A DNA stretch of 50,153 nucleotides from positions 1-50,153 of the IMG/VR virus record IMGVR_UViG_3300049454_000013; one strand, written 5' to 3'. The notes under the pieces are model-generated. The model saw nothing but the letters and a program-made list of their open reading frames with translations, made no database searches and had not been told where the DNA came from. Below are positions 1 to 50,153 of the stretch, in pieces; the first letter of the stretch is position 1; every line of letters starts with the position of its first letter. Made by a program: the position numbers and the translations under genes. Origin of the DNA: a virus (lineage: Duplodnaviria; Caudoviricetes).

Positions 1-127
1 TGCTGTATTACCGTATAGTGAAATTGATAAGGTTGGAGCTGGCATGTATAAAGGAAAAGCTGTAAGTTTGAAGCAACGGCGCTCATAGCTCAGTTGGTAG
101 AGCATTGCTGTTCCACAGCAAGGGTCG
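1..127. repeat. 127-bp terminal direct repeat (identical to 50027-50153); circular assembly overlap, genome 50,026 bp
   Basis: 1-127 matches 50027-50153 exactly. The length equals a common assembler k-mer (127), and the repeat cuts through a CDS and a tRNA. Confidence 0.95.
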
Positions 128-152
128 GGGGTTCGAATCCTACCTGAGCGCT
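79..152 (+). tRNA. tRNA-Gly(UCC), atypical
   Basis: Acceptor GCGCTCA/TGAGCGC, D-arm GCTC-AGTTGGTA-GAGC, anticodon arm TTGCT-GT-TCC-AC-AGCAA, T-loop TTCGAAT, discriminator T. T-stem GGGGG/CCTACC has one bulged A. CCA is not encoded. Confidence 0.9.
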
Positions 153-7702: not shown

Positions 7703-8212
7703 ATGACAGCAAAGGACATACAGACAGCCATTCTATCCCATTACTTTCAGCATGACCATATATATGCCTGTACAAACTTTGAAGGCTGTGGGTACGCTGA
7801 AATGGACGTTATAAGCATAAGCAGGGCATTGTTGGTATATGAATTTGAGGTGAAGATCTCGAAGGCTGATTTCCAGGCAGATTTTGCAAAGCACTTCAAA
7901 CACATCAACCTGCAGCACGCTATTAAGAAAGCTACATTGCCGAACAGGTTTTATTACTGTTGCCCCAGGGATATGGTCAGGCCCGATCAGGTACCGGCAT
8001 ACGCGGGCCTGATGCACTTTGGATATGTAGCGGGCGAAATAGAATTCGCTATTATCAAAAAGGCCCCACTACTTCATAACGAACGGGCCACTGCTCAACT
8101 AATCAACCGTATATGCCAAACCTTATCTACACGGCTGGCATTGAATTGTTCCCTTATGACATACAGGCGCAATAAAAGAAAGCTGAAGGCTTTAGCAGCA
8201 CAACATGACTAA
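7703..8212 (+). CDS. PD-(D/E)xK nuclease-like protein (MmcB-like)
   Basis: EMDV...YEFEVKISKADF.AD..K and NRFYY..P motifs. Confidence 0.7.
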   Translation: MTAKDIQTAILSHYFQHDHIYACTNFEGCGYAEMDVISISRALLVYEFEVKISKADFQADFAKHFKHINLQHAIKKATLPNRFYYCCPRDMVRPDQVPAYAGLMHFGYVAGEIEFAIIKKAPLLHNERATAQLINRICQTLSTRLALNCSLMTYRRNKRKLKALAAQHD

Positions 8213-45150: not shown

Positions 45151-46014
45151 ATGGGTGAAACAACAGGTATAAGTTGGAGCGATGCAACGATAAACTTTTG
45201 GCATGGGTGCCGCAAAGTTTCTGAAGGCTGTAAGTTCTGTTATATGTATAGGGAAAAGGAAAAGTACGGGCAGCAGGGCAACGAAATAAAACGTACCAGC
45301 GCAAATACAATTGTGAAAATCTTGAAAGCGCTGAACCTGCAAAGAATGGAACGGCTGGCTGCAGGCAATAAAGAACCGTTGAAAATATTTACCTGCAGTT
45401 GGAGTGATTTCTTTTTAGAGGAAGCGGATGAATGGAGGCCCGCTGCCTGGAATATAATAAGGGCCAACCCTCAGTACGTTTGGATTATTCTTACAAAAAG
45501 AATGGATCGTGCCAAACAATGCCTTCCGACTGATTGGGGTGATGGTTGGCCTAACGTATGGATGGTTGTTAGTGTTGAAAATCAATTACGTTTTGATGAA
45601 GGGATAACCGACCTTGTTTGTACACCTGCAGCAGTACGGGGAATTTCTATTGAACCCATGTTGGGGCCTATAGATATGGAATTAGGTAGGCGTTATATAG
45701 TAATTGAAAACAAACAATATTTTTTGCAAAGTTTTATTGACTGGGTCATTGTTGGGGGTGAAAGCGGGAATGAAACAGGGAACTGGCGGTACAGACCATG
45801 TGAGGTTAAATGGATGCAGCATATTATTGATCAGTGTTTTAATTATGATGTAGCGGTATGGATGAAGCAACTGGGCACACATATTGCAAAAGCTAATTAC
45901 TTATCGTATGCAGGTGAGAACTGGGATAAATGGCCTGCTCAGTTTTCAAGTTTGAAGGTTCGTAAATTTCCAAAACAAAAAAAGTCTATATATGGAAAAG
46001 AAATTAGTACTTAG
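45151..46014 (+). CDS. DUF5131 (Gp37/Gp68-like, radical-SAM-like) protein
   Basis: T.ISW.D.T.N.W.GC.KVS.GC..CY, SWSDFF, LTKR, S.EP.LG, WVIVGGESG and KQ.G motifs. Confidence 0.9.
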   Translation: MGETTGISWSDATINFWHGCRKVSEGCKFCYMYREKEKYGQQGNEIKRTSANTIVKILKALNLQRMERLAAGNKEPLKIFTCSWSDFFLEEADEWRPAAWNIIRANPQYVWIILTKRMDRAKQCLPTDWGDGWPNVWMVVSVENQLRFDEGITDLVCTPAAVRGISIEPMLGPIDMELGRRYIVIENKQYFLQSFIDWVIVGGESGNETGNWRYRPCEVKWMQHIIDQCFNYDVAVWMKQLGTHIAKANYLSYAGENWDKWPAQFSSLKVRKFPKQKKSIYGKEIST

Positions 46015-46533: not shown

Positions 46534-47436
46534 ATGGATAGAAAAAGGCTGCAGGAAATAGTTGAAACCCTGGGTTCATACAATTACGAAAATGAAGCGG
46601 GCTCCCTTACCAACTGCACACTGTATAAAGAACTTCAGCGTATGGCATGGCCCCAGTTGCCGGTAACATACCCTGAACAATTAAGTAAGCCGCTGGTATT
46701 TTTGGATATAGAAAGCACGGGAACAGATGTGCAGCAGGATAGAATTGTTGAAATATGCATCCTGAAGTACTACGGGGGCCCTAAATGGGAAGATCTCCAG
46801 GTAAGGCGGCTGAACCCTACAATTCCAATACCGAAGGCGGCAAGCGATGTACACGGCATTACGGATGCTATGGTAAAGGATTCACCCACATTCAGGCATA
46901 TAGCTAAAAGCCTGTTAGAAATAATTGCCGGTTGTGATATTGTGGGGTACAATAGCAATGCCTTTGATTGTGCGATAATGTTTTTTGAGTTTGAACGTGC
47001 GGGCCTGTATTGGGAATACGAAAATGTGAACCTGATTGATGTGGGGAACATTTTCAAAATACAGGAAGATAGAACCCTTTCCAGTGCCGTAAAGTTTTAC
47101 CTGGGCAATGTCCATGATCAGGCCCATACAGCCGGGGGCGATGTGATTGTAACGAAAGATATTTTCTTTCAGCAGCTTGCACGCTACACTGACATACCAA
47201 AGCATTACGCCGAACTTGCTCTATACAGTAACTATAACCGTAAGATCATTGACATTAGCGGTAAGTTTACATTCAATGCAGAAGGCGAAATAGTATTCAC
47301 CTTCGGGCAGCATAAGGATAAACCAGTAAGGGAGAATGTGAAGTACATGCAGTGGATGATTGACGGCGGTAGCTTTAATTCTGATACAAAAAAGGTTGCG
47401 GCAAAATTAATTTTTCAATATGGGTCAAAAAAGTAA
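46534..47436 (+). CDS. DnaQ-like DEDDh 3'-5' exonuclease with DUF3820-like C-terminus
   Basis: FLDIESTG, VHGIT, GYN...FD and AH.A..DV motifs; C-terminal FGQHK...Y..W. Confidence 0.9.
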   Translation: MDRKRLQEIVETLGSYNYENEAGSLTNCTLYKELQRMAWPQLPVTYPEQLSKPLVFLDIESTGTDVQQDRIVEICILKYYGGPKWEDLQVRRLNPTIPIPKAASDVHGITDAMVKDSPTFRHIAKSLLEIIAGCDIVGYNSNAFDCAIMFFEFERAGLYWEYENVNLIDVGNIFKIQEDRTLSSAVKFYLGNVHDQAHTAGGDVIVTKDIFFQQLARYTDIPKHYAELALYSNYNRKIIDISGKFTFNAEGEIVFTFGQHKDKPVRENVKYMQWMIDGGSFNSDTKKVAAKLIFQYGSKK

Positions 47437-47809
47437 AGCAAAAAAAGACTTAAAGCAACTGCACGAAATATTTACCAGCGCCCCACTTACAGAAAACATG
47501 TTGCCTATTTCATGGTTCAGATGGGAAAAGAGTGTAGGCCATGAAAAGGTATACAAGTTCATTTGCGGCACCGTAGATGGAATATTTACAGTTGAAAAGG
47601 AAAGGGTTGTAATGATAGGCATAGGCAACATGCAGCCCGGCAATGGGCATATAACCGATGTATTCCAGTGGTTCGAACGTGCATGTAGGGAGCTTAAAAA
47701 GAATTTCTGGATAGTGGAAATAATTAATGAAGGCTTCTACAGGCATTTGGTAGAGAAACATTGCTTTCAGATTGTTACAAACAAACAAGTTATAAAGCGC
47801 TTTCGTTAG
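47420..47809 (+). CDS. small GNAT-like protein
   Basis: I.N.QPGNGH resembles GNAT motif A. Confidence 0.4.
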   Translation: MGQKSKAKKDLKQLHEIFTSAPLTENMLPISWFRWEKSVGHEKVYKFICGTVDGIFTVEKERVVMIGIGNMQPGNGHITDVFQWFERACRELKKNFWIVEIINEGFYRHLVEKHCFQIVTNKQVIKRFR

Positions 47810-48066
47810 TGCAACTGGCAACATTATACAGGTTTCATTTACTGGGCCATGAAGATGCAAACAGAATGGAGCTTGTAAGTTATCAGGGGCTTTCCGGTAA
47901 CGGGCGCTGGTATAAGTTTATGAATGTTGATACAGGCGAAACCTTTTTAATTCGCAAAAGCGATTTCCCTTACCATAGTTTTGTAGCTTTCGGGGTGCAA
48001 TTCTCTTATTCATTTAAACAGATATCACATGCCACGACAAAACACAAAGCAGATAAAGAATGGTAA
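47809..48066 (+). CDS. hypothetical protein
   Basis: Fills the gap; start uncertain. Confidence 0.35.
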   Translation: MQLATLYRFHLLGHEDANRMELVSYQGLSGNGRWYKFMNVDTGETFLIRKSDFPYHSFVAFGVQFSYSFKQISHATTKHKADKEW

Positions 48067-48709
48067 GCCTGCTAAGAAAAAGAAGGTTACCAGGATTGAA
48101 CACTTAACATTTGATACAAAGAATGCCAATAAACATTCGGAGTATGGAACTTCATTATTGAATACTTCCATTCGTAATAATGGCATGGCCCGTTCAATTG
48201 TTATTTCTGATGACAATGTTATAATAGCAGGCAACGGCGTTGCTGAAACAGCGGGGCAACTGGGCATGATGAATGTGAAGGTGATTGAAACGGATGGTTC
48301 TGAAGTTATTGCAGTGAAGCGAACTGATATAAAAAGCGGCACTCCTGAATTTTTTAATTTGGCGCTTGCTGATAATATTGTAGCGCAAAAGAATATAGTA
48401 ATGGATGCCCAGGTAGTTGAGGCCATTGTTGAGGAATACGGCGCTACACAGTTTTGGGCTGAAGTAGTTTTAACGCCCATCATTCCTAAAGTGCTGGATA
48501 AAATTGATCTTCCCGATAATGCAAAGAATGATTTAGTGCAGGCAACGTTTACAATGACAGGGGCCCAGGCTGCAGTAATGCAAGAGGGTTTGAAGATCTC
48601 CAAACGAAAGTTTAAAAAGCAATTTGCCAGTACTGGAAATGAAAACAGTAATGGTAATGCACTGTTCTTTATATTTAAAGCTTTCGTAGATGCAAGCAAA
48701 GCAGAATGA
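48029..48709 (+). CDS. ParB-like N-terminal domain protein of a DNA-modification locus
   Basis: D.KNANKH...L..SI...G..RSIVI......IAGNG and LALADN motifs. Confidence 0.75.
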   Translation: MPRQNTKQIKNGKPAKKKKVTRIEHLTFDTKNANKHSEYGTSLLNTSIRNNGMARSIVISDDNVIIAGNGVAETAGQLGMMNVKVIETDGSEVIAVKRTDIKSGTPEFFNLALADNIVAQKNIVMDAQVVEAIVEEYGATQFWAEVVLTPIIPKVLDKIDLPDNAKNDLVQATFTMTGAQAAVMQEGLKISKRKFKKQFASTGNENSNGNALFFIFKAFVDASKAE

Positions 48710-49379
48710 TTTTTTATTAACAGATTTGGAAGTGTTTGCAATTGATCGCAAAAGCGCAAAGCTTCTTTGTGAAAGGCATCACTACATGAAAACTTATCCC
48801 AATGGTGCTATATGGAATTTCGGCATATATTATAAAAAGAAAATTGCAGGTGTATGTGTATTCGGTTACAGTTCAGCCACACTGCAGAAGGTTACAAAAA
48901 TAATAGCGCTGCCTTTACTGGCAATAATTGAAATGCAAAGGTTATGGATAAGTGACAGTTGCGGGCATAATTCAGAAAGCTATTGCCTGAAAAAAATAAT
49001 TGATTACATAAAGGAACAAACGACTGTTAAACTTATTATAACGCATTCGGGCGGTTGTAAAAATGACTGTGGTATTGTATATCAGTCTTCCTCCTGGTTA
49101 TACTTCGGTAAAACGCCCTGTAAAGATTTCTACCTTACTGCAGCAGGGGAATATAAAAACATTGTAGCATCGATGCGGTTTGGCAGGATAAAAGCGGAAG
49201 GCAGGAAACCCCAGGCAATAGGCGAAGCGCTATTCGGGCCTGGGCAAATAATAAATTCATTTAGGTATACATACGTGTACCCAATTGATAAAGGGTTGCG
49301 CCGGTTGCTTAGTAAAAAGGCATTAGCCTATGAAAAAACCAGTGAACACTTTAGGCGCGGGCAGGAATGGATAACATAG
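48690..49379 (+). CDS. Mom-like GNAT DNA-modification protein 1 (divergent)
   Basis: HHY, G...FG, EM.RLW, NSES, G.VYQ...W.Y.G and Y.Y motifs of Mom-like proteins; the usual SxAD is replaced by THSGG. Confidence 0.75.
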   Translation: MQAKQNDFLLTDLEVFAIDRKSAKLLCERHHYMKTYPNGAIWNFGIYYKKKIAGVCVFGYSSATLQKVTKIIALPLLAIIEMQRLWISDSCGHNSESYCLKKIIDYIKEQTTVKLIITHSGGCKNDCGIVYQSSSWLYFGKTPCKDFYLTAAGEYKNIVASMRFGRIKAEGRKPQAIGEALFGPGQIINSFRYTYVYPIDKGLRRLLSKKALAYEKTSEHFRRGQEWIT

Positions 49380-49427
49380 GGGCCTGACAACGGGGTCTGA
49401 AAAGCCGTTCGAGCCGGCAAGGCTCCA
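49379..49427 (+). ncRNA. anticodon-less tRNA-Ala-like mini RNA
   Basis: Acceptor GGGGCCT/AGGCTCC with G3:U70, discriminator A, T-arm GCCG-TTCGAGC-CGGC, tiny GAC-AACGGG-GTC hairpin, no anticodon arm. Confidence 0.7.
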
Positions 49428-49443
49428 CACAACTTAGTTTGCA

Positions 49444-50114
49444 ATGAACGTAAAGGATATTTTTATACAGCGTATTGATAGCGGTAGCGCTATTCAGTTT
49501 ATTAAGCGATACCATTATTCGGGCAAGGTAGTTTCCAATTCCTCCCTGCACTTTGGTTGCTTCATTGCGGAAAAGCTTATCGGAGTGTTGAGCTTCGGGC
49601 CTTCATTCGATAAGAAAAAAATAATAGGGTTGGTAAAGGGAACTGCCTGGAATGAATTCGTTGAATTAAATAGGATGGCTTTCATTAACGACACGCCCCG
49701 CAATACTGAAAGCCGCTGCATTGGGGTTTGCATCCGTTTAATAAAAAAGCACTGCCCGCACATTAAATGGATTGTAAGCTTCGCAGATGCCACACAGTGC
49801 GGGGATGGAACTGTATACAGGGCAGCAGGCTTCAAACTGTGTGGCATAAAGAAAAACCGTTCAATTATTCGCCTTCCTGATGGCAGGGTAGTAGCTGGTA
49901 TGACGTTCACGAAAGGGACGCATATTTAAAAACAGGGGCTTCTACATTCCCGGAAGGTTCGGAGATCTTACCAGGGTTTCAGCTACGGTATATTTATTTG
50001 CTGAAACCTAACCTGCAGCTAACCGTTGCTGTATTACCGTATAGTGAAATTGATAAGGTTGGAGCTGGCATGTATAAAGGAAAAGCTGTAAGTTTGAAGC
50101 AACGGCGCTCATAG
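49444..50114 (+). CDS. Mom-like GNAT DNA-modification protein 2, split by a -1 frameshift at ~49926
   Basis: HYS, G...FG, ELNRMAF, NTESR and SFADATQCGDGTVYRAAGF motifs. The -1 frame continues LKTGAS...GFQLRYIY...LPYSEID..GAGMYKG to TAG at 50112-50114 (223 aa if joined). Confidence 0.8.
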
Positions 50115-50153
50115 CTCAGTTGGTAGAGCATTGCTGTTCCACAGCAAGGGTCG
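50027..50153. repeat. second copy of the 127-bp terminal overlap
   Basis: Identical to 1-127. Confidence 0.95.

Follow-up and report, generated by a model that had tools for sequence, protein, structure and literature searches.

A phage genome in IMG/VR (record IMGVR_UViG_3300049454_000013; its whole stretch of 50153 bp is referred to here as the window) carries two genes that encode Mom-family enzymes, Mom-like 1 and Mom-like 2, each paired with a tRNA-type RNA, one of alanine type (Ala-type) and one of glycine type (Gly-type), and such pairs recur in more than a hundred uncultured phages. The cassette occupies positions 48029-50153 and, across the circular junction, 1-153, in the order ParB-like gene, Mom-like 1, Ala-type RNA, Mom-like 2, tRNA-Gly(UCC), an order that a first-pass annotation of the DNA had proposed and with which reading frames, profile matches, ARAGORN and a covariance model agree. 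A tRNA beside a mom gene makes sense, because the donor used by Mom of phage Mu is a charged tRNAGly: as reported in the main text of PMC13219725, from which all statements on Mu Mom biochemistry here are drawn, Mu Mom moves glycine from Gly-tRNAGly to adenine N6 in double-stranded DNA, and the base then rearranges, which agrees with the glycyl-tRNA donor that the first-pass annotation had named. We consider it fairly probable that the two RNAs are phage-encoded, non-decoding aminoacyl carriers that serve the two Mom enzymes, one with glycine and the other with alanine. We propose dedicated donors because of the donor chemistry of Mu Mom, because of the precedent of a staphylococcal tRNAGly that serves outside translation, and because the linkage between enzyme and RNA survives inversion and reordering of the genes.

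Both proteins belong to the Mom family, as the first-pass annotation had supposed. In a search of the whole genome with PF25680 (curated cut-off 27.1 bits), Mom-like 1 scores 123.3 bits and Mom-like 2 scores 153.9 bits. Mom-like 1 also matches the Mu Mom structure, PDB 8bv8, in phmmer (E 1.3e-7), and when the AlphaFold2 (AF2) model of Mom-like 1 (pLDDT 84.8, pTM 0.81) is compared with known structures by Foldseek, the best matches are chains A and B of 8bv8 (E 6e-13, template-modelling score 0.62-0.72), with other GNAT proteins next. As modelled, Mom-like 1 is a GNAT fold closest to Mu Mom. A comparison of the profiles of the two sets of homologs (99.5% probability, 26% identity) places Mom-like 1 and Mom-like 2 in two distinct clades, here called Mom1 and Mom2. 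The Mom2 clade is the nearer to Mu Mom (the intact Mom2 of L019 matches 8bv8 with E 3.5e-23); its members keep the Asp of the SFAD motif and have Gln at the R151 column. The Mom1 clade comprises 244 homologs at E<=1e-10. No Mom1-clade gene was found in cultured phages (21 records, all <35% identity), and in the species genome collection the clade occurs in 3 contigs of metagenome-assembled genomes (MAGs) only.

The active site of Mom1 is partly that of Mu Mom and partly its own. In Mu Mom, residues R111, S124 and R151 are essential, and D149, H58, Y59 and Y159 are important (PMC13219725). Residues R84, S97, H31, Y32 and Y131 of Mom-like 1 stand in the columns of Mu R111, S124, H58, Y59 and Y159 (in the alignment, chain index = Mu residue minus 9), and these columns are invariant across 34 Mom1-clade members. 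The active-site motif, SFADERCG in Mu, reads THSGGCKNDCG in the window and THAGGCKNDCG in the form typical of the clade, with G121, G122, C123, K124, D126, C127 and G128 invariant; alignment to 8bv8 and the clade profile comparison thus both recover the replacement of SxAD by THSGG that the first-pass annotation had pointed out.

The Ala-type RNA begins where Mom-like 1 ends: the stop codon TAG at 49377-49379 supplies, with its G, nucleotide G1 of the RNA. An acceptor stem (49379-49385 paired with 49420-49426, G3 opposite U70), a D-arm-like hairpin (49386-49397; 3 bp, GGG loop) and a T arm (49403-49419; loop TTCGAGC) can be assigned, with 17 nt separating the acceptor and T stems; the discriminator A73 at 49427 is followed by CAC, and CCA is not encoded. 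A leave-one-out covariance model, built with the window copy excluded, finds 49379-49430 as the only significant match in 50153 bases (38.9 bits, E 2.6e-7), the second-best match having 11.7 bits and E 0.87. The RNA is not recognised as a canonical tRNA-Ala: ARAGORN makes no call, and there is no Rfam tRNA match at E<=10.

Comparison of copies between phages establishes that the Ala-type RNA is a conserved element, 47-73 nt in length. A loose scan, which required only an acceptor stem of 7 bp, a T arm next to it and a T-loop motif and left the acceptor sequence free, recovered 47 copies (45 Mom1 loci, L019 and the window), and 47 of 47 have GGG at positions 1-3, U70, C71, C72 and A73. (A stricter scan that forced GGG and TCCA was set aside: invariance in its matches is circular, and it gave 17 matches in 3 shuffles and one false match, L052.) Pairs were counted in the 19 aligned short forms only, a joint MAFFT alignment with the long forms having misplaced 5' strands; long Ala-type forms therefore score weakly with model R1. 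In the 19 short forms, 99.6% of cells pair, as against ~50% in slid pairing registers; both sides have changed in 7 of the 12 pairs, and the covariation score is 0.71 vs 0.16 in shuffles, a value reached by none of 500 shuffles. Pairs 1-3 are constant and G4:C69 is present in 18 of 19, whereas free variation is seen at pairs 5-7 and along most of the T stem. The bacterial alanyl-tRNA synthetase (AlaRS) identity set given in PMC9976931 is A73, G2-C71, G3.U70 and G4-C69, with G20 minor; all four main elements are in the window copy, in which G20 is not assignable. Between the stems, 29 of 30 distinct copies can form a hairpin of 3-5 bp whose loop contains GG; longer forms have a second hairpin as well. 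In both RNA families the base after the discriminator is usually C (30 of 30 distinct Ala-type and 57 of 62 Gly-type RNAs; window positions 49428 and 153), and the two bases after this conserved C74 are usually not CA.

The Gly-type RNA is a second family, of which the window copy is the most tRNA-like member, although it shares the extra T-stem base. The window tRNA-Gly has G1:C72, C2:G71, U73, C35 and C36, and a regular anticodon loop (7 nt, U33); its T stem has six bases on the 3' side, one A being extra, and CCA is not encoded. It is the single tRNA that ARAGORN calls over the whole window (tRNA-Gly(tcc), 79-153). Covariance model R2, built from 21 ARAGORN-called Gly-type RNAs and applied with a threshold of E<=0.1, matches at 55 of 63 Mom2-only loci and at 47 of 51 Mom1+Mom2 loci, that is, at 102 of 114; three more loci score weakly with R2 in a permissive search. 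In a column profile of 63 distinct sequences, in an alignment fitted to model R2, G1:C72 is present in 62 of 62, C2:G71 in 61 of 62, C35 and C36 in 63 of 63 and U73 in 59 of 62. The bacterial glycyl-tRNA synthetase (GlyRS) identity set (U73, G1-C72, C2-G71, G3-C70, C35, C36) is present in the window copy and in the family profile. The base at position 34 is variable (T 48, A 11, C 4), as is the one 5' of it (A 31, T 21, G 8, C 3); positions 32 and 38 form a C:G pair in 42 sequences, 16 of 63 have an extra loop base, and 60 of 62 have an unpaired extra A in the 3' T-stem strand. On this comparison, the family departs from canonical tRNA-Gly in its irregular T stem and its often odd anticodon loop. 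ARAGORN makes calls at 25 loci (12 of 63 Mom2-only, 13 of 51 Mom1), all of them Gly (UCC, CCC or ACC) or of undetermined type with a two-base 'anticodon', with the sole exception of an 88-nt RNA in L112. This RNA (L112 1127-1214, 5' of a Mom2-Mom1 pair) has an 'anticodon' of four bases (gagc) and an extra arm that is long, and is neither Gly-type nor Ala-type. The Rfam tRNA threshold is reached in only 2 of 20 loci (19 with a default-filter R2 match, plus L119, where R2 detects the pair of copies once filters are switched off), and there are no matches to other Rfam families.

The two RNAs follow the two enzyme clades. We collected 64 IMG/VR loci with a Mom2 query and 51 from the Mom1 alignment, one contig, in which both mom genes are intact, being common to both sets (L019 = L077). 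With a slightly wider loop pattern, the Ala-type RNA, with its G3:U70 pair, is found in 46 of 51 Mom1-clade loci vs 0 of 64 loci without Mom1 (Fisher p = 7.6e-27, computed on rows that are not independent), and the Gly-type RNA accompanies Mom2 at the 102 of 114 loci given above, a correspondence of RNA identity and enzyme clade for which the first-pass annotation had proposed a test. Three MAG loci that stood outside all model building have the Ala-type RNA directly after Mom1 in 3 of 3. The linkage persists when gene order and orientation change. The usual order is Mom1, RNA, Mom2; L110, L111, L112 and L115 have Mom2, Mom1, RNA instead; and in L076, L086, L088 and L097 the Ala-type RNA is on the opposite strand behind Mom2, directly after the Gly-type RNA, so that in L086 and its like both RNAs stand head to tail on the minus strand in the fashion of a tRNA operon. 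The Gly-type RNA is antisense to Mom2 in 22 of 102 loci. Three of the Mom1 loci without an Ala-type RNA are incomplete: L109 and L114 are cut by contig ends, and L108 has the 3' part only, beside a broken Mom1. Five control loci with more distant Mom genes, those of Mu, Polaribacter P12002L, Elizabethkingia TCUEAP3, Aeromonas pAEv1818 and PAN70, have no such RNA. We conclude that both RNA families exist, with conserved structure, strict genetic linkage and conserved synthetase identity sets.

The same arrangement of Mom2 and Gly-type RNA occurs in a cultured phage. Psychrobacter phage vB_PmaS_Y8A (OQ059336.1) has a Mom2 that is 49.8% identical, a ParB-like gene upstream of it, and two tandem Gly-type RNAs without a D arm (L119 3162-3231 and 3234-3304; OQ059336.1 ~7786-7928). 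The two RNAs score 35.8 and 35.2 bits and lie in an unannotated gap between the mom gene and the small terminase gene; ARAGORN misses both.

In the window itself, the reading frame of Mom-like 2 is broken, which the first-pass annotation, treating Mom-like 2 as an intact gene, had overlooked. The frame stops at TAA 49927-49929, and the remainder of the protein is encoded in a shifted frame, ending at TAG 50112-50114 (tRNA positions 8-10). In all related loci both parts are in a single frame. A near-identical contig from a run of a different study, X2, has an extra T behind 49924 that restores the frame, although this evidence is one contig of depth 6.8 that covers parts of the stretch; X1, the probable source run of the window, has the same sequence as the window at the deletion site. 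Programmed frameshifting was rejected: there is no X XXY YYZ site at 49921-49929, homologs are in frame, and the near-identical contig has the additional T. We conclude, from these comparisons, that the window carries a deletion allele of Mom-like 2. Mom2 of this particular genome is probably inactive; its truncated product would be without the insertion found essential in the Mu study (PMC13219725). The overlap of stop codon and RNA that had been described for both genes thus applies to Mom-like 1, whose TAG gives G1, and not to Mom-like 2 as encoded in the window; for the second gene, the overlap at TAG 50112-50114 is a property of the intact allele of run X2 and, in the window allele, lies in the other frame.

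According to the hypothesis that the RNAs are dedicated carriers, the cassette would be a tRNA-dependent DNA-modification module with its own amino-acid carriers. Mom2-type enzymes would transfer glycine from charged tRNAGly to adenine N6 in double-stranded DNA in the fashion of Mu Mom, and the Mom2 clade would use the phage-supplied tRNA-Gly-like RNA as its dedicated carrier. This carrier keeps the bases that bacterial GlyRS reads (G1:C72, C2:G71, G3:C70, U73, C35, C36) and has lost features that decoding requires: A frequently replaces U33, positions 32 and 38 frequently form a Watson-Crick pair, some loops are overlong, and an extra A interrupts the T stem; one cultured phage lacks the D arm as well. 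Mom1-type enzymes are a divergent paralog, and their RNA keeps only what AlaRS reads, G2:C71, G3:U70, G4:C69 and A73, on an acceptor/T-arm helix to which a small D-like hairpin is joined. The two synthetases would account for the difference between the carriers: GlyRS reads C35 and C36, and the glycine carrier would therefore keep an anticodon arm; AlaRS reads the acceptor end only, does not depend on the anticodon, and would thus allow the alanine carrier to lose that arm. The window phage encodes neither AlaRS nor a CCA-adding enzyme, and maturation and charging must therefore fall to the host, whose RNase P, 3' trimming, CCA-adding enzyme, AlaRS and GlyRS would act on both RNAs. We infer that the RNAs are transcribed, processed and charged and that each serves as donor for the neighbouring enzyme. 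Mom1 would go on to attach an alanine-derived group to DNA, at sites of its own or atop the Mom2 product, and phage DNA so modified would be protected from host nucleases, that is, would have an anti-restriction role. The full version of this proposal, in which a natural ~50-nt minihelix-like RNA feeds a re-tuned Mom paralog that makes an alanine-derived DNA group, a glycine carrier feeds a Mom2-type enzyme, and the two form portable cassettes, has in our judgement about an even chance of being correct.

Several observations weigh against dedicated carriers. Single-sequence folding of 49370-49445 is no better than that of shuffled sequences (z = -0.58); the support for the predicted mini-tRNA is comparative. 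ACCA is encoded in only 9 of 30 distinct Ala-type RNAs, most copies having no CCA. Many loci are close relatives, and the counts overstate the number of independent events. L099 and L100 have Mom1 and truly no Ala-type RNA within the available DNA, and even a permissive search detects no Gly-type RNA in the Mom2-only loci L008, L014, L015, L017, L027 and L038. The window combines a frameshifted Mom2 with an intact tRNA-Gly. A private carrier is, by the main text of PMC13219725, not a general need of the Mom family, because Mu Mom uses all of the host tRNAGly isoacceptors and mined metagenomic homologs are called active. Gly and Cys (G121 and C123 of Mom-like 1) replace Mu D149 and R151, and Mom1 may therefore work differently from Mu Mom, or not as a transferase at all. 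Finally, the coding frames extend into the RNAs: the Mom1 frame usually ends inside the Ala-type RNA or reads straight through it, that of Mom2 often enters the Gly-type RNA, and in most loci the stops of both lie in or beside the RNAs.

The foremost alternative accepts charged carriers and takes Mom1 to be an accessory of Mom2, which adds alanine onto the glycyl intermediate, alters product or sequence preference, or holds RNA without catalysis. Mom1 occurs with Mom2 in 49 of 49 assessable Mom1 loci, whereas Mom2 occurs alone in 63 loci; because Mom1 is never found without Mom2, Mom1 may act with or after Mom2 rather than independently. This co-occurrence is also one hint towards the dipeptide-like modification that the first-pass annotation had suggested as a possibility. 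The loss of the equivalents of Mu D149 and R151, and the dimeric state of Mu Mom (PMC13219725), would also suit an accessory. However, Mom1 keeps the equivalents of R111, S124, H58, Y59 and Y159 together with an invariant set of its own, and looks like a working, re-tuned active site; and the glycyl intermediate rearranges on the base, by the account in PMC13219725, leaving little time for a second addition. We regard an accessory role as unlikely, though as the alternative to be taken most seriously.

A second alternative is that the tRNA-like elements are cis signals in mom transcripts: RNase P or RNase Z sites, 3' stabilisers, or a translational control of a toxic enzyme. The reading frames overlap the RNAs, so the RNAs could also act in cis on the mRNA, and tight control of mom in Mu, where Com is annotated as a translational activator, would be mirrored by such elements. 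Yet 22 of 102 Gly-type RNAs and the Ala-type RNAs of four loci are antisense to the mom genes, and L086 and its like have both RNAs together on the minus strand. Moreover, processing enzymes need shape and not G3:U70/A73 or C35/C36/U73, yet these very bases are fixed while the stems covary. We judge a purely cis function to be improbable, more so than an accessory role for Mom1.

A third explanation would be that these are normal phage tRNA genes, which help to meet codon demand or stand in for host tRNAs that defence nucleases have cleaved, and which lie in a variable region that happens to adjoin mom. Phages often carry tRNAs, and the tRNA-Gly(UCC) of the window is almost canonical and is called by ARAGORN. 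But the Ala-type RNA has no anticodon arm; most Gly-type RNAs fail both ARAGORN and the Rfam threshold and have A33, odd loops and the T-stem bulge; and, the unrelated RNA of L112 aside, the RNAs are of Gly and Ala type only, each tracking one enzyme clade. We consider this explanation very improbable. That the RNAs are uncharged decoys, which could restrain Mom, or leftovers of integration in tRNA genes, fragments of which phage attachment sites often hold, is the least credible reading of all, since both acceptor-stem strands are present and covary between phages, no integrase adjoins the window cassette (it is bordered by replication genes and, beyond the junction, by small open reading frames), and the window genome, circular or terminally redundant, carries the whole RNA.

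The IMG/VR record is a full phage genome (class 'direct terminal repeats', 100% complete), and the long reading frames are on the + strand throughout; coordinates of the cassette are collected in the table.

Table. Features of the Mom cassette and of the ends of the window.
Feature	Position	Strand	Basis
ParB-like / sulfiredoxin-domain gene, 226 aa	48029..48709	+	phrog_620, E 1.2e-13
Mom-like 1, 229 aa	48690..49379	+	PF25680 Mom, E 1.2e-35, 123.5 bits, profile 2-201/202
tRNA-Ala-type RNA, 49 nt, no anticodon arm (predicted)	49379..49427	+	sequence; leave-one-out model; family covariation
Mom-like 2, N-terminal 161 codons, premature TAA 49927-49929	49444..49929	+	PF25680, E 1.1e-44, 152.9 bits, profile 2-150/202
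Mom-like 2, C-terminal part, shifted frame, TAG 50112-50114	49920..50114	+	translation; comparison with L002, L004, L019
1-nt deletion site, three-T run (four T in other-study contig)	49923..49927	+	contig comparison
tRNA-Gly(UCC), 5' part; window ends inside, continues at 128-152	50105..50153	+	Rfam tRNA 28.4 bits (3'-truncated); model R2 29.3 bits
tRNA-Gly(UCC), full copy across circular junction	79..152	+	ARAGORN 79-153; model R2 64.1 bits
Terminal overlap, 127 nt	1..127 = 50027-50153 exactly		string comparison

The 5' neighbours of the cassette are replication genes (RecE-like exonuclease, DnaB-like helicase, proofreading exonuclease), and across the junction lie the terminase gene and small open reading frames. 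By tblastn, the ParB-like gene is immediately 5' of the Mom genes in most related loci. Three unassigned genes lie 5' of the cassette (45151-46014, 47420-47809 and 47761-48066); one encodes a 287-residue phrog_2045 protein with a Cys-rich start, and two are small reading frames that have no Pfam or PHROG match.

Other loci show further variation in layout. L099 and L100 contain Mom1, Mom2 and a tRNA-Gly(ACC)-like RNA, and in them the Mom1 stop overlaps the Mom2 start. Tandem Mom2-type genes without Mom1 occur in L014, L015, L017, L027, L023 and L033; the first four give no match to the Gly-type RNA even when the search is permissive, and in L023 and L033 the RNA lies further downstream. L090 (38-979, 314 aa; ~1.5 kb 5' of the ParB-Mom1-Mom2 cassette) and L001 (2929-3558, 210 aa) have a third Mom-like gene, distant from Mom2 (26-32% identity). 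In many loci, for example L067 (1339-2160) and L042 (703-1614), the Mom2 frame reads through the Gly-type RNA; conserved-looking Mom2 tails such as GGANPT are translated T arm, and gene callers will over-extend these proteins.

It is already known that the Mom family exists and uses charged tRNA, and that staphylococci have dedicated non-translational tRNAs. The tRNA-dependent modification of DNA by Mom has been established recently, for one enzyme, one amino acid and host tRNA. The cassette suggests that Mom chemistry may reach a second amino acid, that phages may provide the donors themselves, and that a tRNA may be pared naturally to its synthetase identity elements once decoding is not required. 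The idea of a pared-down tRNA has so far rested mainly on laboratory minihelices. If the proposal is correct, enzyme-plus-carrier cassettes would be a widespread, portable phage route to the host aminoacylation machinery for DNA chemistry, and the alanine-derived group would be a base modification not yet described. At present, two RNA families in >100 phage contigs are missed by tRNA finders and Rfam, and the unannotated Gly-type copies of one cultured phage are now pointed out.

Searches of the literature, supplements aside, returned no prior description of virus-encoded carriers, of a natural alanine carrier without an anticodon arm, of the Mom1 clade and its altered motif or of an alanine-based DNA modification. 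The main text and preprint of PMC13219725 make no mention of tRNA genes near mom, gene neighbourhoods, paralog pairs or minihelices; the similarity network and two tested homologs of that study, detailed in its supplements, could bear on novelty.

The closest known system is Mu Mom, which shares PF25680 and the GNAT fold with an extra insertion; Mom2-type proteins are ~31% identical to it and keep the SFAD motif. In Mu, however, no tRNA-like RNA lies beside mom, and the enzyme relies on host tRNAGly; all three E. coli tRNAGly isoacceptors serve it, whereas Ala-tRNAAla and Gly-tRNAAla are rejected, and the authors suggest that it reads the acceptor end of the tRNA (PMC13219725). Where the cassette has a ParB-like gene upstream, Mu has Com. 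Mom1-clade proteins differ from Mu Mom at the D149 and R151 columns, where Gly and Cys stand, and an RNA of Ala identity adjoins their genes. An enzyme that does take Ala-tRNAAla is FemX of Weissella, as mentioned in PMC13219725.

Carriers set apart from translation are known from staphylococci. According to PMC7826273, non-proteogenic tRNAGly of S. aureus is preferred by FmhB and binds EF-Tu poorly, with determinants in the D and T arms. The tRNAGly species that serve FmhB, FemA and FemB are, as the phage Gly-type RNAs would be, glycine carriers apart from translation, and the phage RNAs have a fixed T-stem oddity; the staphylococcal RNAs differ in being chromosomal, full cloverleaves of a staphylococci-only lineage (PMC7826273). 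They differ also in that the acceptor is a peptidoglycan precursor, not DNA, and in that they are not encoded beside a viral enzyme.

The tRNA-like domain of tmRNA, like the Ala-type RNA, is of Ala identity (G3:U70), possesses a T arm and a D region of reduced size, and lacks an anticodon arm. The Ala-type RNA differs in having no mRNA-like part and no pseudoknots and in being 47-73 nt overall, and a tmRNA reading was rejected: ARAGORN calls no tmRNA in the window or in the related loci, and Rfam gives none at permissive thresholds in the window region. An acceptor stem on a T arm, with G3:U70, is sufficient for AlaRS, a view that the identity table of PMC9976931 supports; a synthetic tRNAAla minihelix was reportedly described by Francklyn and Schimmel in 1989. 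Such minihelices are laboratory constructs, whereas the phage Ala-type RNA is a gene found in nature, is conserved, and has a D-like hairpin in addition.

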